Source: an uncultured Spirochaetales bacterium
GTDB taxonomy: Bacteria > Myxococcota_A > UBA9160 > UBA6930
Direction of reading: 5' to 3'
Length of the DNA stretch: 64,000 nucleotides
NCBI GenBank assembly: GCA_964460485.1
Contig: CAYWRY010000002.1
Location: 4,243-68,242, forward strand
Under the pieces are notes generated by a model. The model searched no databases. It was not told the origin of the DNA and was given only the letters and a program-made list of their open reading frames with translations. The translations under genes and the position numbers were made by a program. Positions within the stretch are counted from its first letter, which is position 1, and the number at the start of each line of letters is the position of its first letter. Positions 5,738 to 41,128 of this stretch are shown here, piece after piece.

Positions 5738-6060
5738 TAGAGCACGCGCTGCACCAGCTCCTCGAACGCGCTCTTGGGCCGCGCGCCGGTGATCTGGCCG
5801 ACGACGGTGCCGTTCTTGAAGGCGAGCACCGTCGGAATCGCGCGCACGCCGTACTTGCCGGGCGTCGCGGGGTTCTCGTCGATGTTCATCTTGACGACCT
5901 TCACCTTGCCATCGTACTGCGCGGAGAGGTCTTTCACGATCGGCGCGATTGCGCGGCACGGAGCGCACCACTCGGCCCAAAAATCGATCACGGTCGGGAG
6001 TTCCGACTTCAGCACCTCGGATTCGAAGTTCGCGTCGGTCACGTCGATGATGCCTGCCAT
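5737..6060 (-). CDS. trxA: Thioredoxin
   Basis: 107-aa product with the WCAPC active site (FWAEWCAPCR) and thioredoxin-fold motifs. ATG at 6060 is preceded by CAGGAGAG. The rest of ORF 5737..6651 is upstream read-through. Confidence 0.95.
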   Translation of the reverse strand: MAGIIDVTDANFESEVLKSELPTVIDFWAEWCAPCRAIAPIVKDLSAQYDGKVKVVKMNIDENPATPGKYGVRAIPTVLAFKNGTVVGQITGARPKSAFEELVQRVL

Positions 6061-6328
6061 CGCGGCTCTCTCCTGGGTAGGGCGTCGGTGGTCGCTGCGC
6101 GCTCGCCACAGATGTGCGAGCGCGCCGGAACGTCGCAAACCGACGCCGCAGGCGCCCGCACTTCTGCGCGCGATCGCGCGGCGTGCGGCGCGGCCACTCG
6201 CGCACGGCAAGCGCCGCGCACGTAGCAGCGGAGGGCACCGATCGTTACCTTGCGCGAGCTTCGATCTCCTCGATTTCACTCGGGTTTTCGCGACGCCGGC
6301 ACGCGAGCCCGGCTCGAGAGTCCGCCGC

Positions 6329-19557: not shown

Positions 19558-20220
19558 GTGGCCGAGTCTCGAAATGGCGCAGCGAGCGACGGCATCGGCC
19601 CCACGGCGGATCGCAAGGCACAGCAGCGCCAGAAGATCCTCGACGCCGCGCGCCAGGTGTTCTTCCGCGACGGCTTCGTGGCGGCGAACCTCGACGAGGT
19701 CGCCGCGATCGCGGGCGTCGCGAAGGGCACGCTCTATCGCTACTTCGCGAACAAGGCCGACCTCTACGTCGCGCTGCTTTCCGACAACGGCGACAAGTTC
19801 GTCGCGAAGATGCGCGACGCCGCGAGCATGCCCGGCGGCGCAGGCGACCGGATCCGAGCCGTGGGGCGCTTTTATTACGGCCATTGGGCGCGGAACCGCG
19901 ATTACTTCCAGATCTTCTGGGCGCTCGACAACCAGGGGCTGATCGGCGTCCTGCCGCCCGCGCTCGTCGGCGAGGTGACGGCGCTCTGGGAGAGCTGCCT
20001 GCGCATCCTCGCCGACGTGATCGAGGACGGCGTGAAGGCGCGCGAGTTCGCGCCCTGCGACTCCTGGGAAGTCGCGAACCTGCTCTGGACCGTGGCGAAC
20101 GGTCTGATCCAGACCGAGCACGTGATGCCGCGCAAGGAGCTGCGCCACAAGCCGCTCGACGTGATGTTCGAGGATTCGCTCGAGCTCTTTTTGCGGGGGC
20201 TCTCGCGCGCGAAGGCGTGA
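19558..20220 (+). CDS. TetR/AcrR family transcriptional regulator
   Basis: N-terminal HTH: ILDAARQVFFRDGFVAANLDEVAAIAGVAKGTLYRYFANKADLY. Confidence 0.9.
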   Translation: MAESRNGAASDGIGPTADRKAQQRQKILDAARQVFFRDGFVAANLDEVAAIAGVAKGTLYRYFANKADLYVALLSDNGDKFVAKMRDAASMPGGAGDRIRAVGRFYYGHWARNRDYFQIFWALDNQGLIGVLPPALVGEVTALWESCLRILADVIEDGVKAREFAPCDSWEVANLLWTVANGLIQTEHVMPRKELRHKPLDVMFEDSLELFLRGLSRAKA

Positions 20221-20244
20221 GAGAAGACGCTTGTTCGGGAGTCC

Positions 20245-20414
20245 GCGCGCGGCGGCGGGCCGGGGGCTGCTGCGCCGACTGGCTCGCTCGGCCCGCCTCC
20301 AGGATCTGCTTGGCGGGCGCCTGGCCACGATGCGTCGTCGCTCGGGCGTGAATTCTCGCGGGGCCTCGCTGCGCTCGATGTCGGCTCCGCAGCCCCCGGC
20401 CCGCCGCCGCGCGC
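20245..20414. repeat. Long hairpin element A: perfect 26-bp inverted repeat around a 118-nt structured core
   Basis: 20245-20270 (GCGCGCGGCGGCGGGCCGGGGGCTGC) is the exact reverse complement of 20389-20414. A second stem pairs 20274-20279 with 20380-20385. It is homologous to 32052-32214 in the opposite orientation. Confidence 0.85.
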
Positions 20415-20450
20415 TCGCCGTTGTGCCGAGCGACTGCGGGGTGGGACGGC

Positions 20451-20483
20451 GACGGCTTGGCGGCATCGAGCCGCCAAGCCGTC
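20451..20483. other. Perfect 14-bp-stem hairpin (GACGGCTTGGCGGC-ATCGA-GCCGCCAAGCCGTC)
   Basis: Exact inverted repeat with a 5-nt loop. It lies 36 nt after element A and 72 nt before the polA ATG. It could be a terminator or a regulatory structure. Confidence 0.6.
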
Positions 20484-20554
20484 GTTACGGGGCGCGGTGG
20501 CTCGGTCGTGCCTTCGAGCACGGGTCGTTCGCGCGTTCTCGAGATGCGCATGCG

Positions 20555-23344
20555 ATGCCGCGAACGCGCGCGCGAGGCGGCTACCGTGCGTTCGTGCGGA
20601 CACTGCTCGTCATCGACGCGGCGAACGCGCTCTATCGGGCGTTCTTCGCCTTGCCGCCGCTGCGCAGTCCGAGCGGGGCGCCGACAGGCGCGGTGTTCGG
20701 GCTCGCGAACATGCTGCGCAAGCTGATTCGCGAGGAGAAGCCGGATGCGATCGCCGTCGCCATGGATCCGCGCGGCGGCAGCTTCCGGCGCGAGCTGTTC
20801 GCGGGCTACAAGGCCACGCGCGACGCGCAGCCCGAGGACCTCTCCGCGCAACTCCCGCTGGCGCGCGAGCTGATCGACGCCTGGCAGCTGCCCGTGCTCG
20901 AGGTGCCGGGCTTCGAGGCCGACGACGTGATCGCCACGCTGGCGAAGACGGCGCCGCCCGGCTGGAACGTGGTGATCGTCTCGTCGGACAAGGACCTGAT
21001 GCAGCTGGTCGGCGGCCGCGTCGTGCTGCTCGACTCGATGAAGGACAAGCGCATCGGCCCCGCCGAGGTGCAGGAGCGCTTCGGCGTGCCGCCGGAGCAG
21101 CTGCTCGACGTGCGCGCGCTGGTGGGCGACCCGTCGGACAACATCCCCGGCGTGAAGGGCATCGGCGAGAAGGGCGCAGCCGCGCTGATCGCCGAGTACG
21201 GCACGCTCGAGAACCTGCTCGCGAAGGCGGGCGAGGTGAAGGCGAAGAAGGCGCGTGAGGCGCTGCTCGCGCAGGCGGACGCCGCGCGGCTCTCGAAGCA
21301 GCTCGCCACGCTGCGCGACGACGTGCCGCTGCCCGCCGGCATCGACGCGCTGGCGCCGCATGCGCCCGATCGCGCCGCGCTGCGCGAGATCTACAAGCGC
21401 CTCGGCTTCGGGCGGCTCGTCGAGGAGATCGATGCCGAGATCGCCGCGAGCGGCGCGCCGCCCAGCCCGTCCGCCTCTCGAGCCGCCGCTGACCCCGACA
21501 GGGGTCTGACCCCTCCTGGGCTCGACGCGACGTTTTCGTCCGAGAGCGTCCGGTGCGAGGTGGTTCGCGAGCTCGCGGCGCTGCGCGCGGCGGTGCAGGC
21601 GCTCGCCGACGCCGAGCGCGTGGGGGTCGTGCTGGTCGGCGACGACGAGCCGGGCGGCCTGCCGGGCGTGCCCGCGGGCGTCGCGCTGTGCGGCGGCGCG
21701 CACGCGTTCTATGTGCCCCTCGCGCACGACCTTTTGGGCGGCGCGCAGCTCGCCTGGCCGAGCGCCGCGCCGGAGCTGTTCAGCTTGTTCGAGGGCCCGG
21801 CTGCGCGGCCGTGGATCGCGGCGAACACGAAGCGCGTGCAGTCGCTGCTCGCCGAGGCGGGCTGCACGGCCGCGCTGCCGGAGCTCGACGTCGAGCTCGC
21901 GGCGTTCCTGATCGACCCGGCGGGCGCGACCGCTACCTCCGCGCTCGCGCTCCAGCTGCTCGGCCGCGAGCTGCGCGGGTTCGAGGAGCTGACGGGACGC
22001 GGCGCCAAGGCGCGACCCGCGAGCGCGCTCAGCGCCGAGGAGGCGGGCGCCTGGGCGGCGCAGGAGGCGAGCGCGCTGCTCGCGCTCGCGCCGCGACTCG
22101 AAGCACGCATCGCCGCCGACGAGCTCGCGCCGCTGCTGCGCGACGTCGAGCTGCCGCTCACGGCCGTGCTCTCGGCGATGGAGCGCGCCGGGATCCGCGT
22201 CGACGAGCAGAAGCTCGCGGCGCTCTCGCAGGAGTACGAGCGCGAGCTCGTGCGCATCGAGGGCAACCTCTACGCGCTCGCCGGCGAGCGCTTCCAGATC
22301 AACTCGCCGAAGCAGCTGGCGGCGGTGCTGTTCGAGAAGCTGAAGCTGCCGCCGGTGAAGAAGACGCAGACGGGCTTCTCGACGGACGAGAGCGTGCTGG
22401 AGCAGCTGTCCACGCAGCACGAGCTGCCCGCGCAAATCCTCGCCTGGCGGCGGCTCGCGAAGCTGAAGAGCACCTGGGTCGACGCGTTGCCGCCGCTCGT
22501 GAACGCGCGCACCGGGCGCATCCACCCCACCTTCAACCAGATCGGCGCGGCGACCGGGCGGCTCTCCTCGACGCACCCGAACGTGCAGAACATTCCGATC
22601 CGCAGCGAGGAGGGCGTGCGCATCCGCGAGGCGTTCGTGCCGGCGGAGGGGATGACCCTGCTGTCGGCGGACTACTCGCAGGTGGAGCTGCGCATCGTCG
22701 CCCACTACTCCGGCGACCAGAGCCTGATCGACGCGTTCGCCAAGGGGGAGGACGTCCACCGGCGCACGGCGGCGGAGGTGAACGGCATCGAGCCGGACGC
22801 GGTGACGGCTGACCAGCGCGCGCACGCGAAGGCGATCAACTTCGGGATCATCTACGGCTCCTCGGCGTTCGGCATCGCCAACCAGCTCGGCATCGCGCAG
22901 GCCGAGGCGCAGGCGACCATCGACCGCTACTTCGCGCGGTACCGCGGCGTGCGGCGCTTTCTCGACGAGACCATCGCCGCCGCGCAGGAGACAGGCTTCG
23001 TGCGCACGCTGCTCGGGCGCCGCCGTTACCTGCCCGACCTGCGCTCGCGCAACCGCGCGCTGCGGCAGGCCGCCGAGCGCATGGCGGTGAACACGGTCAT
23101 CCAGGGCACGGCGGCGGATCTCATCAAGAAGGCGATGGTCGAAGTGCAGCAGGCGCTCCGCGACGCCGGCCTGCGCGCGCGCATGCTGCTCCAGGTGCAC
23201 GACGAGCTCGTGTTCGAGGCTCCGCCCGGGGAGCTCGCGGAGCTGACGAAGCTGGTGAGGTCGCGCATGGAGGGCGCCTACGCGCTCTCGGTCCCCCTGG
23301 TCGCGGACGTGGGCTCCGGCCGGAACTGGCGGGAGGCGCATTGA
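20555..23344 (+). CDS. polA: DNA polymerase I
   Basis: 5'-nuclease domain (LLVIDAANALYRAFFA, GVKGIGEKGAA). Pol motifs A (DYSQVELRI), B (RAHAKAINFGIIYG) and C (LQVHDELVFE). Start is ATG 20555 or GTG 20594 within ORF 20231..23344. Confidence 0.95.
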   Translation: MPRTRARGGYRAFVRTLLVIDAANALYRAFFALPPLRSPSGAPTGAVFGLANMLRKLIREEKPDAIAVAMDPRGGSFRRELFAGYKATRDAQPEDLSAQLPLARELIDAWQLPVLEVPGFEADDVIATLAKTAPPGWNVVIVSSDKDLMQLVGGRVVLLDSMKDKRIGPAEVQERFGVPPEQLLDVRALVGDPSDNIPGVKGIGEKGAAALIAEYGTLENLLAKAGEVKAKKAREALLAQADAARLSKQLATLRDDVPLPAGIDALAPHAPDRAALREIYKRLGFGRLVEEIDAEIAASGAPPSPSASRAAADPDRGLTPPGLDATFSSESVRCEVVRELAALRAAVQALADAERVGVVLVGDDEPGGLPGVPAGVALCGGAHAFYVPLAHDLLGGAQLAWPSAAPELFSLFEGPAARPWIAANTKRVQSLLAEAGCTAALPELDVELAAFLIDPAGATATSALALQLLGRELRGFEELTGRGAKARPASALSAEEAGAWAAQEASALLALAPRLEARIAADELAPLLRDVELPLTAVLSAMERAGIRVDEQKLAALSQEYERELVRIEGNLYALAGERFQINSPKQLAAVLFEKLKLPPVKKTQTGFSTDESVLEQLSTQHELPAQILAWRRLAKLKSTWVDALPPLVNARTGRIHPTFNQIGAATGRLSSTHPNVQNIPIRSEEGVRIREAFVPAEGMTLLSADYSQVELRIVAHYSGDQSLIDAFAKGEDVHRRTAAEVNGIEPDAVTADQRAHAKAINFGIIYGSSAFGIANQLGIAQAEAQATIDRYFARYRGVRRFLDETIAAAQETGFVRTLLGRRRYLPDLRSRNRALRQAAERMAVNTVIQGTAADLIKKAMVEVQQALRDAGLRARMLLQVHDELVFEAPPGELAELTKLVRSRMEGAYALSVPLVADVGSGRNWREAH

Positions 23345-31898: not shown

Positions 31899-31959
31899 CG
31901 AGCGCGGCAATCCGCTCGTTGGCGATCGAGCACGGCCGTCGCACGGGCGAAGCCTGACT

Positions 31960-31984
31960 CGCCGGCGCCTCGAAGGCGCCGGCG
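31960..31984. terminator. Terminator-like hairpin after the oxidase gene (CGCCGGCGCC-TCGAA-GGCGCCGGCG)
   Basis: Perfect 10-bp stem with a 5-nt loop, 62 nt after the stop at 31898. Confidence 0.5.
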
Positions 31985-32051
31985 ATTCACCCTCCCAACT
32001 ACCGACTCGTCGACGCAGCCCCGCACGCGAAGCGTGACCCTCGCGCGCCGT

Positions 32052-32214
32052 CCGACGCGGGCCGGGCGCGGGGCGCGGAGCCGGCATCGAGCGCAGGAGC
32101 GACCCCCAGACCCGGTGAGTCTTCAGAACACGCGCGCCCCGTCTCTCCGGTGGTCCCCTCCAGAGGGTCGCTCCGAGCCGGCCGGCGCAGCGCCCCGCGC
32201 CCGGCCCGCGTCGG
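32052..32214. repeat. Long hairpin element B: perfect 25-bp inverted repeat around a 113-nt structured core
   Basis: 32052-32076 (CCGACGCGGGCCGGGCGCGGGGCGC) is the exact reverse complement of 32190-32214. An inner 10-bp stem pairs 32096-32105 with 32165-32174. The inner flanks are homologous to element A in reverse orientation. Confidence 0.85.
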
Positions 32215-32286: not shown

Positions 32287-33651
32287 ATGTCCACCGCATT
32301 CGACCTCGCCGAGCTGCGCCGCCTCGACGCCGCCCACCACCTCCACCCCTTCACCGACCACGTCGCCCTGCACAAGCAAGGCACCCACGTGATCCGCTCC
32401 GCGAAGGGCTGCACGCTCGTCGACGAGACGGGCCGCGAGCTGCTGGACGGCCTCGCAGGCTTGTGGTGCGTGAACATCGGCTACGGGCGCGACGAGATCC
32501 GCGCCGCCGTCGACGCGCAGATGCGCCAGGTCGCCTTCTATCCGTCGTTCTTCAATACCTCGACGGAGCCGACCATCCGCCTCGCCGCGCGCCTCGCGGA
32601 GCTGGCGCCGCGCGGCCTCGGGCACGCAATCTTCTCGAACTCGGGCTCCGAGGCGAACGAGACCGCGCTGAAGCTCGCGCGCGCCTACTGGAAGCTGCGC
32701 GGCAAGCCGGAGAAGAAGAAGGTGCTGTCGCGCACCTACGCCTATCACGGCGTGGGTCTCGCGACGACGAGCCTCACCGGGTTGCCGAGCTGCCTCGACC
32801 CGTTCGACCTGCCGCTGCCCGGCTTCATCCACGTGCCCGGCCCGCTCGCCTACGGCAGCGAGCTCTCGCCGACCGATTACGGGAAGTGGTGCCTCGAGCA
32901 GACCGAGCGCGCGATCGCGCGCGAAGGCGCGGGCGAGATCGGCGCGATGTTCGTCGAACCGATCCAGGGCGCGGGCGGCGTGATCGTGCCGCCGCCCGGC
33001 TACCTCGCGCAGCTGCGGGAGCTGTGCCGCCGCCACGAGATCCTGTTCGTCGCGGACGAGGTGATCACGGGCTTCGGTCGCCTCGGCGCGTGGTTCGCTT
33101 CGGAGCTGTGGTCGCTGGATCCGGACCTGATGACCGTCGCGAAGGGAATCACGAGCGGCTACGTGCCGCTCGGCGCCACGCTCGCGCGCGACGAGATCGC
33201 GGAGACGCTTGCGACGGGCGGCTACCTCGCCCACGGCTTCACCTACACGGGGCACCCGGTCGCGTGTGCGGCCGCGCTCGCGAACCTCGACGTGCTCGCG
33301 AAAGAGAAGCTCGTGGAGCGCGTGCGGGACGACGTGGGGCCGCGCTTCCAGGAGCGGCTCGCGAAGCTCGGCGCCCACCCGGCAGTGGCCGAGACGCGAG
33401 GCTTCGCGCTGATCGGCGCGTTCGAGATGCGCCGTCCGCCGCGCGGCCCGCTCGCGAATGCCGGGCCGAACGCCCTCGGGCCGGCGATGCACGCGCTCTG
33501 CCGCGAGGAGGGCGTGATCGTGCGCGGCATCCGCGACCTCGGCGCGATGTCGCCGCCGTTCGTGGTGACGCACGCGGAGCTCGACGAGATGTTCGCGCGC
33601 ACGGCGCGGGCCCTCGACCGACTGTGGGCGGGCGAGATCGCGAAGGGCTGA
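32287..33651 (+). CDS. Class-III aminotransferase, SpuC-like (putrescine/omega-amine:pyruvate aminotransferase)
   Basis: Co-linear with P. aeruginosa SpuC by eye: HHLHPFTD, GLWCVNIGYGR, SGSEANE, EPIQGAGGVIVPP, DEVITGFGR, and the PLP-Lys in TVAKGITSGY. Confidence 0.9.
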   Translation: MSTAFDLAELRRLDAAHHLHPFTDHVALHKQGTHVIRSAKGCTLVDETGRELLDGLAGLWCVNIGYGRDEIRAAVDAQMRQVAFYPSFFNTSTEPTIRLAARLAELAPRGLGHAIFSNSGSEANETALKLARAYWKLRGKPEKKKVLSRTYAYHGVGLATTSLTGLPSCLDPFDLPLPGFIHVPGPLAYGSELSPTDYGKWCLEQTERAIAREGAGEIGAMFVEPIQGAGGVIVPPPGYLAQLRELCRRHEILFVADEVITGFGRLGAWFASELWSLDPDLMTVAKGITSGYVPLGATLARDEIAETLATGGYLAHGFTYTGHPVACAAALANLDVLAKEKLVERVRDDVGPRFQERLAKLGAHPAVAETRGFALIGAFEMRRPPRGPLANAGPNALGPAMHALCREEGVIVRGIRDLGAMSPPFVVTHAELDEMFARTARALDRLWAGEIAKG

Positions 33652-37482: not shown

Positions 37483-37544
37483 GCGTGTAAGGGCGGGCGC
37501 GGCGCGCTCGGGCGCCGCGCCGCTCGCCGCCGGCGAGGAGGAGC

Positions 37545-39407: not shown

Positions 39408-41128
39408 CAGCCCACCTTCCACACGACGGAGAGCATCTTCCAGTTCACGAAGTAGTAGGTGACGAACGCGACCAGGAAGACGCCCACCAGCACCATCGTG
39501 CCCGGTGCGACGCCGAGCGCGTGGGGCGCGAGCGCCGCTTCGTCGCCCGCCACGAGCGCGCGCGGCGGGGAGATCAGCCCGAGCGGGAGGCCCTTCGCGG
39601 CGGCGCCACGGCCCGATTCGGCGGCGCCCAGGCGCCGGCCGAAGAACACCGACGCGACCGTCACCAGGATGTAGATCCCGCCGCCGGCGACTGCTAGCAG
39701 ACCGCCGAGCGCCATCACGCCGACCACGAGATCCACCGCCGGCGAGAACTCCACGCCGAAGGGCGCCTGGGAGAAGGTGATGTCCCAGTGCCGCCGCGGG
39801 ACGCCGAAGCTGCCCGCGAAGGTCATCGCCATCGAAAAGATCAGCATGCCGAGAGCGAACAGGTACGGCTGCACGCGCGCCAGCGGCATGAAGGCGATCT
39901 CGCGGCGAAAGATCAGCGGCACCACGTAATAAGTGATGCCCATGAATGCCATCGCCGTGCCCGAGACGACCGTCGCGTGGAAGTGGCCCGGAATGCGCAG
40001 CGTGTTGTGGGCGATGATGTTGATCTGCTCGGTGCCGAACGTGACGCCGGTGATGCCGCCGACGAAGCCAAACACCACCAGCGAGAGCACGAGCGAGCTG
40101 AAGCCGGGGTCGCCCCACGGCGCTCGCGCCAGCCAACCGAACAGTCCCTGCGTCGCGCCGCGCAGGCGCAAGCCGAGCTCGAGCCCGGCGGGCACCGTGA
40201 AGCCGTGGATCATGCTGGCGAGCACCGCCATGTACATGAAGTACGAGGTGTTCCAGACCTTCCAGGCGGGGCCGAAGCCGGGGTCGACGAGCAGGTGGTG
40301 CGCCGACGCCATCGAGATGAACAGGATGTAGAGCACGAAGGCGACGCGGCTGATCTTCTCGTTCAATACCACGCCGCCGACGGTGAGCGCGCCGAGCAGG
40401 TACCAGATCGACACCATCGCCGCGACGTTGATCTGCTGCGACGAGTGACCGAGTCCCCACCAGATCAACCGATAGAAGGACGGGTCGATCTCCAGCCAGC
40501 CCATCGACCAGAGCAGGGTCGGAACGTAGACGATCGCGCCGTGCAGCAGCGTGACGGTCGCGATGATCGCCGCGGTGAGCGCGCCGAAGGTGACGAGCGG
40601 CAGCGAGCCCTTCAAAACACCCTCGCGCTTTGCGACGGTGATCGTCGCGAAAAAGTGGCCCACCACGATCAGCGCGCCGACGGCGAACAGGATCACGCCG
40701 AGATAGAAGGGGGGCTCGGCGCGCAGCGGGACGTAGGAGGTGAAGAGCACGTCCGCCTTGCCGCTGAACATCATCCACTCGACCAGCGCGGCGCCGGCCG
40801 TCATCAGGCCGAAGGCGAGCCAGCCGAGCCGAGGCGCGGGCAGCCGCGCCGAGAGCAGCGGCGCGGCTGCGAAGTAGAGCACCGCCATCTCGAAGAACAG
40901 GATGAAGAAGATCAGCATGTTCATGCCGTGCACGGTGAGGATCCGGTAGAACCACACCGGATCGAGCAGGTGCACCGCCTGCCAGCGCGTCAGCAGCACG
41001 AGCAGCGCTGCGATGCCTCCGACGAGCAGCGCGATCGTCGCGGCGACCGCGTTGGCCTTGATCAGCGCGTCGGCGTGCGCGTCGACGAACAGGCCGGTGG
41101 AGGGGCAGGTTCGTCCCGCGGCGCTCAT
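39407..41128 (-). CDS. Heme-copper oxidoreductase subunit I, ba3 (B-family)-like but lacking the cross-link tyrosine
   Basis: Co-linear with T. thermophilus CbaA by eye: LTVHGMNMLIFF, WWGLGH, SAHHLLVDPGFGP, LRGATQGLFGWLARAPWGDP, HNTLRIPGHFHATV and GVPRRHW. GHPxVY is replaced by GHSSQQ. ATG at 41128 overlaps the subunit II stop. Confidence 0.9.
   Translation of the reverse strand: MSAAGRTCPSTGLFVDAHADALIKANAVAATIALLVGGIAALLVLLTRWQAVHLLDPVWFYRILTVHGMNMLIFFILFFEMAVLYFAAAPLLSARLPAPRLGWLAFGLMTAGAALVEWMMFSGKADVLFTSYVPLRAEPPFYLGVILFAVGALIVVGHFFATITVAKREGVLKGSLPLVTFGALTAAIIATVTLLHGAIVYVPTLLWSMGWLEIDPSFYRLIWWGLGHSSQQINVAAMVSIWYLLGALTVGGVVLNEKISRVAFVLYILFISMASAHHLLVDPGFGPAWKVWNTSYFMYMAVLASMIHGFTVPAGLELGLRLRGATQGLFGWLARAPWGDPGFSSLVLSLVVFGFVGGITGVTFGTEQINIIAHNTLRIPGHFHATVVSGTAMAFMGITYYVVPLIFRREIAFMPLARVQPYLFALGMLIFSMAMTFAGSFGVPRRHWDITFSQAPFGVEFSPAVDLVVGVMALGGLLAVAGGGIYILVTVASVFFGRRLGAAESGRGAAAKGLPLGLISPPRALVAGDEAALAPHALGVAPGTMVLVGVFLVAFVTYYFVNWKMLSVVWKVG

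Follow-up and report, generated by a model that had tools for sequence, protein, structure and literature searches.

Hairpin elements beside polA and an aminotransferase gene probably belong to a dispersed family of intergenic palindromic repeats in uncultured high-GC bacteria

We analysed a 64,000-nucleotide (nt) stretch of DNA from an uncultured bacterium (contig CAYWRY010000002.1 of assembly GCA_964460485.1, positions 4,243 to 68,242), hereafter called the window, which has a G+C content of about 72% and carries two long hairpin-forming elements in intergenic gaps. Element A is flanked by a TetR-family gene (19558-20220) and polA (start at about 20552-20594), both confirmed (PF00440 for TetR; PF02739, PF01367 and PF00476 for PolA) via the gene tables of orthologous loci and identical metagenome contigs. 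The neighbours of element B, which is antisense to both, encode a DAO-family oxidoreductase and a class-III aminotransferase. Four Joint Genome Institute (JGI) metagenome contigs are 99.98-100% identical to the window and show no strain-level variation.

The long hairpin of element A spans 170 bases (20245-20414, plus strand). Its 5' arm (GCGCGCGGCGGCGGGCCGGGGGCTGC, 20245-20270) is the exact reverse complement of its 3' arm (20389-20414), forming, as a preliminary description of this DNA had reported, an outer stem of 26/26 base pairs (bp), 25 G:C and one T:A, with 118 nt between the arms. The inner 12 nt of the 5' arm are common to the related copies that we call type A below, and the outer 14 nt are variable, with changes mirrored on the opposite arm. 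Next to the stem, TGC (20271-20273) stands opposite TCC (20386-20388). These bases had been described as a 3x3 internal loop and are indeed found there, but the middle G and C can pair, giving U.C, G-C and C.U. The helix continues, also as described, with GCCGAC (20274-20279) pairing with GTCGGC (20380-20385, directly followed by the TCC so that both occupy 20380-20388). Inside it lie a 7-nt L block (TGGCTCG, 20280-20286), of which GGCTC is invariant in the alignments of all nine copies found in this study, a variable core (20287-20368) and an R block (CTGCGCTCGAT, 20369-20379; family consensus CTSCGCT plus a variable tail). The core is skewed towards T over A and on its own folds no better than shuffled sequences; the local stem GCCCGCC/GGCGGGC noticed earlier appears in the minimum-energy fold of copy A. 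The long hairpin is followed by a linker (20415-20449), which ends in a G-rich box (GCGGGGTGGGACGG, 20436-20449), and by a small perfect hairpin with an ATCGA loop (20450-20484). Perfection and loop are as first described, while the hairpin has 15 bp rather than 14 (20450-20464 with 20470-20484) and begins 35 nt rather than 36 nt after 20414. The 26-bp inverted repeat is not due to chance, as had been argued: within 400 nt, perfect inverted repeats reach 26 bp in the window and 13-17 bp in 30 dinucleotide shuffles. When folded as RNA, copy A has a z-score of -7.6 and copy B of -5.9. About 25 nt past the small hairpin, the polA leader contains a mini-hairpin (20508-20523, CGTGC-CTTCGA-GCACG) with a TTCGA-containing loop.

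Element B occupies positions 31959-32214 of the minus strand. Its long hairpin (32052-32214) has an outer stem of 25/25 bp (32214-32190 with 32076-32052), inside which we found TGC (32189-32187), GCCGGC (32186-32181) and the L block (32180-32174) on the 5' side, and the R block (32096-32086), GCCGGC (32085-32080) and TCC (32079-32077) on the 3' side. The linker (31986-32051) contains a G-rich box, GTTGGGAGGG, which is the complement of 31990-31999, and leads to a small hairpin (31959-31985) with a TCGA-containing loop, in the same relative orientation as in A. This hairpin had been reported as a 10-bp hairpin with loop TTCGA; its presence and orientation stand, and its length is 11-12 bp. A and B are homologous and lie in opposite orientations, as the preliminary description had proposed, with linkers of 35-66 nt. 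The small hairpin belongs to the element, since the only hairpins of the window that combine an NTCGA loop with a G-rich box adjoin A and B.

Relatives were reached via homologues of the flanking TetR and aminotransferase proteins and then via the contigs encoding them. Their DNA was obtained from 12 gene-anchored look-ups, and the set searched comprised the window and 11 loci, about 203 kb in total (loci are designated by L and a number). The nearest homologues of the flanking proteins that bear an organism name are labelled as Myxococcota (68-79% identity), and the family would be specific to one clade of uncultured bacteria with high G+C content that probably belongs to the Myxococcota. A covariance model, which had been put forward as a check, was built from eight copies and run over the 203 kb. 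It recovered nine copies at 50-123 bits, two of them in the window, where no third was detected. The nine copies occupy five different intergenic sites, each filled in some genomes and empty in others, indicating that the object is not a two-copy structured locus but a dispersed family whose presence varies among relatives.

The tetR|polA site holds window A and a copy in L080 (L080A), the DAO|aminotransferase site holds window B and copies L092:2866-3021 and L094:11439-11560, the latter two downstream of the aminotransferase gene, and the 3' end of the ALAD gene holds L080:2720-2828 (L080C) and L085:1827-1984 (L085C). The gap between a substrate-binding-protein (SBP) gene and a permease gene of an ABC transporter is occupied by copy L090a (L090:5924-6093), and the permease|sigma factor gap by a second copy of the same locus (L090b, L090:4601-4767). 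In L080, whose TetR is 86% identical, the long hairpin stands at the same tetR|polA position with an outer stem of 26/26 bp; five outer-stem pairs and three pairs of the 6-bp helix differ from those of A, all changed on both arms. The same gap has no long hairpin in L082, L084, L085 (where it measures 34 nt), L086 and L096. Likewise, the DAO|aminotransferase gap measures 66 nt in L089 versus 388 nt in the window, and the SBP|permease gap, filled in L090, measures 62 nt in the window. This last gap of the window contains a 10-bp perfect hairpin (37496-37521; GGCGCGGCGC, GCTCGG, GCGCCGCGCC). L080 and L085 come from ENA entries ERZ25039524 and ERZ25039602; ALAD, PALP and polA in L080 and COX1 in L085 are each split into two open reading frames, which suggests indel errors in these contigs, and single-base indels in their element copies are to be treated cautiously.

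Copies are 45-77% identical to one another (23-55% divergence) and fall into two subfamilies. Type A comprises window A, L080A, L090a and L090b (66-77% identity), and type B comprises window B and L092 (71% identity) together with L094 and L080C; identity across subfamilies is 45-58%. Window A is 66% identical to the L080 copy at the same site versus 71% to L090a at a different site, and because it is no closer to its same-site counterpart, a shared position is no proof of simple vertical descent.

The element is a composite in which a long hairpin is followed by a linker ending in a G-rich box and then by a small hairpin with an NTCGA loop. The unit measures about 240-270 nt, of which the long hairpin takes 110-170 nt. 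Every copy presents the parts in the same 5' to 3' order: outer stem, 3-base mismatch motif, 6-bp helix, L block, core and R block. The outer stem, made of a G-rich and a C-rich arm, ranges from 16 to 31 bp and is perfect in six copies, interrupted by one mismatch in two and degenerate in L085. The TGC/TCC motif is found in five of the nine copies (window A, window B, L080A, L090a and L094), is closed to perfect pairs in L092 (TGC/GCA) and L090b (GGC/GCC), and is altered to TCC/TCC in L080C and TGC/GCT in L085C. The 6-bp helix is replaced in other copies by GGGGAA/TTCCCC, GCCGGC/GCCGGC, GCGCGA/TCGCGC or GCCCAA/TTGGGC. The junction is asymmetric, a 5' block with GGCTC facing a 3' block CTSCGCT, and is kept in 9/9 copies, while the core between them varies from about 54 to 100 nt. 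Type-A copies share the linker start TCC[TC]CGGCGT, and a G-rich box resembling GGTGGGAGGG lies directly 5' of the small hairpin, itself 10-15 bp long across the family, in every copy having one. On reading the sequences, we found no consistent start codon that would make this box the ribosome-binding site of a small open reading frame and no consistent complementarity that would make it a partner of the C-rich arm, and both ideas were dropped.

The small module occurs alone at the tetR|polA site of L082, and L080C has the long hairpin without a clear small hairpin; because each part occurs separately, the unit is a mosaic. Before the L082 module (L082:1085-1160), a G-rich box and a GTCGA-loop hairpin, stands GCGCGCTGCGCCGGCGCGGTGGCGCGCAG, similar to a type-B arm at its L-block end, and the module may be what a deletion has left of a full unit. 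Tandem mismatches of pyrimidines, UC facing UC (GA facing GA when the other strand is read), are seen repeatedly: in the inner stem of type-A copies and in three small hairpins, those of L082, L090a and L090b.

We scored pairing in the outer stem and the 6-bp helix over eight copies (33 pairs, 243 cells), with stems delimited by hand. Alignment of G/C-only arms between subfamilies is partly arbitrary, and internally perfect copies give mirrored differences under any alignment. Standard pairs made up 97.1% of the 243 cells, 26 of the 33 pairs were altered on both sides, and one-sided (wobble) changes were absent. None of 500 shuffles reached these values of pairing and covariation, and sliding the partner by 1-3 columns reduced pairing to 41-49%. 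The nine sequences aligned by the model gave 95.4% pairing with 26/32 pairs altered on both sides, and the small hairpin over nine copies gave 91.7% of cells paired with 13/15 pairs altered on both sides. At 23-55% divergence, arms evolving independently would gain several mismatches per stem, and six copies have none; something therefore keeps the arms matched. The earlier observation that pairing is kept while sequence changes, made on two copies, thus extends to the family.

Such two-sided changes, together with the location of the copies, would also be expected of a structured RNA selected at the RNA level, either a cis-regulator in 3' untranslated regions and between cistrons or a multi-copy small RNA, in which the long helix would be the functional unit (e.g. 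an RNase III substrate) and the small hairpin its terminator. Indeed, eight of the nine copies are sense-oriented shortly after a stop codon, with the 5' edge of the long hairpin 24, 33, 40, 73, 17-29, 37, 36 and 16 nt past it, which represents four or five of the five independent sites and distances of mostly 16-40 nt with one at 73 nt. Moreover, 2-4 T follow the small hairpin in several copies, and the forward strand folds better as RNA by 3-20 kcal/mol in seven of eight copies, with more G:U in the core. However, dinucleotide shuffles of the core reproduce the forward-minus-reverse difference (z about 0, most extreme -1.6), and the cores alone are no more stable than shuffles (z about 0 for type-A copies), except in L092. 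Since composition-matched shuffles show the same bias, the forward-strand advantage reflects the skew of T over A and not RNA selection, and we dropped it as evidence for an RNA function. In addition, the 243 stem cells contain no G:U despite 17 A:U, and copy B is antisense to both its neighbours. The 5' flanks of the copies have nothing in common, so there is no shared promoter. Rfam gave no match in the window at gathering thresholds, and its best sub-threshold scores in 20200-20600 were 14-23 bits versus cut-offs of 35-100 (6S RNA included). Finally, presence and absence at orthologous sites is hard to square with a required regulator. We therefore regard selection on an RNA as unlikely.

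The constraint on pairing looks instead like a DNA-level one, because G:U is absent against 17 A:U, the commonest stem change is a GC to CG flip (or the reverse), for which no wobble intermediate is possible, and both strands are equal as DNA: as single-stranded DNA the two strands of copy A fold at -75.2 and -76.8 kcal/mol, with z-scores of -6.4 and -8.1. The preliminary description had proposed selection on structure, as RNA or as a DNA cruciform; the constraint on complementarity is real, and the evidence points to DNA rather than RNA.

Taken together, these results lead us to favour, with rather better than even confidence, the view that A and B are diverged members of a family of non-coding intergenic repeats that form hairpins and are of the REPIN/BIME/MITE-like palindromic type (MITE, miniature inverted-repeat transposable element). 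This level of confidence applies jointly to the dispersed repeat, the DNA-level co-evolution of its arms and a role at 3' ends. The family, previously undescribed, adds to the well-known bacterial repeats of the "junk or terminator" sort and is not a novel class of RNA. Its arm complementarity would be kept by hairpin-dependent copying, by template-switch correction, or by both acting together. In the first case, the element would be copied via a single-stranded DNA hairpin intermediate and only well-paired variants would propagate, a logic proposed for REPINs, whose hairpins commonly show compensatory changes and for which excision products point to a Y1 transposase acting on a hairpin of single-stranded DNA as intermediate (PMC3116915). 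In the second, replication would switch template between the arms and turn mismatches into pairs, a process known to correct imperfect inverted repeats preferentially to perfect ones (PMC5941160; PMC7202029). Template switching copies one arm onto the other at the DNA level, yields perfect Watson-Crick arms and can convert a multi-base mismatch in a single event. In L092, the TCC side has become GCA, fully complementary to TGC, which needs two changes on one arm, and we infer that the closed motifs of L092 and L090b are direct traces of this process. As a mutational process, however, it explains by itself neither the architecture of the element, nor its dispersal, nor the retention of TGC/TCC in five of nine copies.

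The same documented correction, with its traces in L092 and L090b, could also have acted on palindromes that never moved: old terminators would have been lengthened and perfected in place by template switching, and their similarity would reflect ancient duplication or convergence of GC-rich sequence. The copies do lie where terminators are expected. Nevertheless, nine copies share one ordered architecture (L block, R block, linker start, G-rich box and NTCGA loop) at 50-123 bits, which convergence cannot explain, and close relatives have empty sites, making an origin in place quite improbable. A variant in which the outer stems are a resident terminator split by insertion into a palindromic target also appears unlikely, as the arms of A and L090a share 22/26 nt at unrelated loci and empty sites have no matching hairpin; for the outermost bases it is less improbable.

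We then compared the family with known systems. Like REPINs of the REP-RAYT system (PMC3116915; PMC8266576), it is non-coding and extragenic, and all nine copies consist of two inverted units and a spacer that together fold as a long hairpin, whether as single-stranded DNA or as mRNA. In both, conservation is concentrated at the ends of the hairpin region and not in its variable middle, compensatory changes are frequent, and copies are diverged and long-lived. Unlike REPINs, its arms are not REP palindromes, an assignment that we rejected because an arm of 31-35 nt folded by itself is no more stable than its shuffles (z = -0.9 to +1.9). Arm length is 25-35 nt, with about 55-100 nt between the two arms, and the linker, G-rich box and second hairpin are present on one side only. 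REPs carry a conserved 5' GTAG-type tetranucleotide; we noticed none at the arm ends on reading the alignment, no dedicated scan having been run. Genomes with a REP-RAYT system have one RAYT gene (a Y1 HUH transposase), usually bordered by the repeats, and tens to hundreds of extragenic copies. The BIMEs of enterobacteria are mosaics of palindromic modules and linkers that lie in 3' untranslated regions and between cistrons and stabilise the upstream mRNA, and the SBP-permease gaps malE-malF and hisJ-hisQ are among their classic locations. The mosaic modules and the SBP-permease location of L090a recall them, but our modules are perfectly paired and far longer, show no similarity to BIMEs in sequence and come from a different lineage.

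An ordinary MITE would be a deletion derivative of an insertion sequence, moved by a DDE transposase that binds the terminal inverted repeats and makes target-site duplications. The Correia elements of Neisseria (CREE/NEMIS), ERIC/IRU and RUP-type MITEs are intergenic, 100-170 nt long, end in inverted repeats of about 26 bp, are co-transcribed as long RNA hairpins and form families of many near-identical copies. Correia termini are conserved and flanked by a TA target duplication, and Correia hairpins are cut by RNase III, which alters mRNA stability. In its dimensions and hairpin shape, the present family is similar to Correia and ERIC elements, and its 110-170 nt, long terminal inverted repeats, lack of coding capacity, dispersed copies and variable occupancy between genomes would all suit a MITE. 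In contrast, the outermost 10-14 bp of its arms are the least conserved and the inner 12 bp and the junction the most, the reverse of what transposase-bound termini would show. No consistent direct repeat surrounds the units: a 9-bp repeat, GCGCTCGAT, found 9 nt before and 12 nt after L090a (L090:5833-5847 and 6094-6120), is not seen at other copies and is probably due to chance. The same 9-mer is also part of the R block of the window copies. Furthermore, the unit runs on asymmetrically into the linker and second hairpin, and no related insertion sequence was seen in any of the fetched loci. The preliminary description had given many identical copies with target-site duplications as the mark of an ordinary MITE; with copies 45-77% identical, variable termini and no consistent duplication, we consider such an element very unlikely.

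The sites of a folded single-stranded DNA recombination system, such as integron attC or the attP hairpin of CTX phage, offer a further comparison. An attC site lies just downstream of an open reading frame, is recognised by its folded structure, and has two helices with an unpaired spacer followed by a variable terminal structure. Our element shares the position after an open reading frame, a conserved unpaired motif between two helices, the variable terminal structure and the keeping of structure while sequence varies. A putative recombinase might read the motif and the junction and produce gene-scale rearrangements. Both copies of the window do sit in gaps that are rearrangement points in the clade, since an inversion of the aminotransferase gene and the gain or loss of a GST-family gene fall in those gaps. 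Compared with the window and L089, the aminotransferase gene (32287-33651 in the window), and no other, has the opposite orientation in L090/L092 (GCA_964501435.1) and L094. The gene has been turned together with its conserved 5' leader (GCTGGCGCC...GTGCTGGGATA), and one breakpoint is at most about 35 nt from the 5' edge of element B. An opposite-strand GST-family gene stands between tetR and polA in L083 (11082-11717) and L096 (1903-2289) and is lacking in the window (20221-20593) and five other loci. However, the link to rearrangements is post hoc and involves two cases, and the GST gene is found both where the element is present and where it is lacking. No attC core sites (RYYYAAC/GTTRRRY) occur in the arms, which are made of G and C (apart from the one T:A pair of copy A), and the window and the gene tables contain no integrase or recombinase. 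The neighbours are syntenic housekeeping genes and not cassettes of an array, and the outer helix has 16-31 bp versus about 7 bp. A recombination site is thus highly improbable. A retron would have a1/a2 repeats on either side of msr-msd and a reverse-transcriptase gene next to it, and it was rejected because no reverse transcriptase is found in the window or at any copy. The element works like a REPIN or BIME but lacks defining features of REPINs, classical MITEs, attC sites and retrons and matches no Rfam family, and we filed it as a new family of hairpin-forming intergenic repeats.

Under the dispersed-repeat reading, because the copies lie shortly after a stop codon in sense orientation, they would be transcribed at the end of the upstream mRNA. 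There, the very stable hairpins would form a barrier at the 3' end, stabilise the mRNA or terminate transcription independently of factors, in the manner of REP/BIME, ERIC and Correia elements. A role in termination or stabilisation is thus probable, judging from position alone, and several other observations weigh with this one against our preferred interpretation. The terminator scan of the window gave no U tract after the hairpins of either element. This agrees with the earlier statement that they are not simple terminators and, with the 2-4 T found only in some copies, led us to reject an intrinsic (Rho-independent) terminator; promoter and terminator scans found nothing at the elements. 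Neither the window nor the gene tables of the fetched loci (about 200 kb of relatives) contained a transposase, RAYT or reverse-transcriptase gene. We found no target-site duplication consistent across copies, and, among the sites compared, no excision or empty-site junction that fixes the ends of the element precisely. Copies sharing a site (A with L080A, B with L092) could have descended vertically and been retained there by selection, which would suit a functional cis element no less than a mobile one. The density of two copies in the 64-kb window and nine in 203 kb suggests hundreds per genome, a number extrapolated from about 200 kb. Finally, the retention of TGC/TCC in five of nine copies and of the GGCTC/CTSCGCT junction in all nine implies that a sequence-specific partner would recognise them.

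Such a partner would be central to another possibility, which we consider doubtful: an undescribed class of hairpin-dependent, non-autonomous element, without REP units, conserved termini or target duplication. An enzyme recognising the mismatch motif and the GGCTC/CTSCGCT junction would copy it via a hairpin of single-stranded DNA, so that arm complementarity would be regenerated or selected at each step, and the element may also promote gene-scale inversions, gains and losses at its insertion sites.

Searches beyond the fetched loci were made with the R block and by BLAST. Exact R-block scans returned 14 matches in 185,579 reference genomes, 8 in viral contigs and 53 in metagenome contigs, all of them chance matches in unrelated, mostly coding sequence without an L block or an inverted repeat. 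The inner flanks, which had been proposed as a search motif, are not conserved across the family. Only chance matches were obtained because the R block varies within the family, reading CTCCGCTTGAT in L080, and these scans therefore say nothing on the distribution of the family. BLAST against plasmids and phages gave nothing relevant. Two other hairpins came to light. In L085, the Usp|LpxD gap, only 7-19 nt in relatives, is taken up by an unrelated 168-nt hairpin (5853-6020) whose arms pair perfectly over 22 bp (CTAGGAGCCCGACCCAAGATGG). A 16-mer of it precedes the polA start of the same locus (L085:10577-10592), and its arm looks like a ribosome-binding site followed by ATG. It may represent a second family of hairpin repeats, not present in the window. 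The window itself has a 12-bp perfect hairpin at 40840-40870 (GCAGCCGCGCCG-AGAGCAG-CGGCGCGGCTGC), unrelated to the family described here.

Overall, the structural observation made on element A is confirmed, the inference first drawn from it is supported in part, and the object is best regarded as a dispersed family of DNA-level palindromic repeats and not as a structured RNA locus. The cataloguing of intergenic hairpin repeats is poor beyond the proteobacteria and a handful of model organisms, and with this family the annotation of an uncultured high-GC lineage gains a model that can be used in searches. The family is also a warning that hairpins of this sort may be taken for riboswitches, small RNAs or terminators. 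Its old copies (45-77% identical), perfect wobble-free stems and two repaired motifs make it a clean natural case of co-evolution between arms at the DNA level, with which hairpin-dependent replication could be told apart from template-switch correction. Finally, if the elements act as 3'-end barriers, they would affect the expression of neighbours such as polA and ABC-transporter operons.

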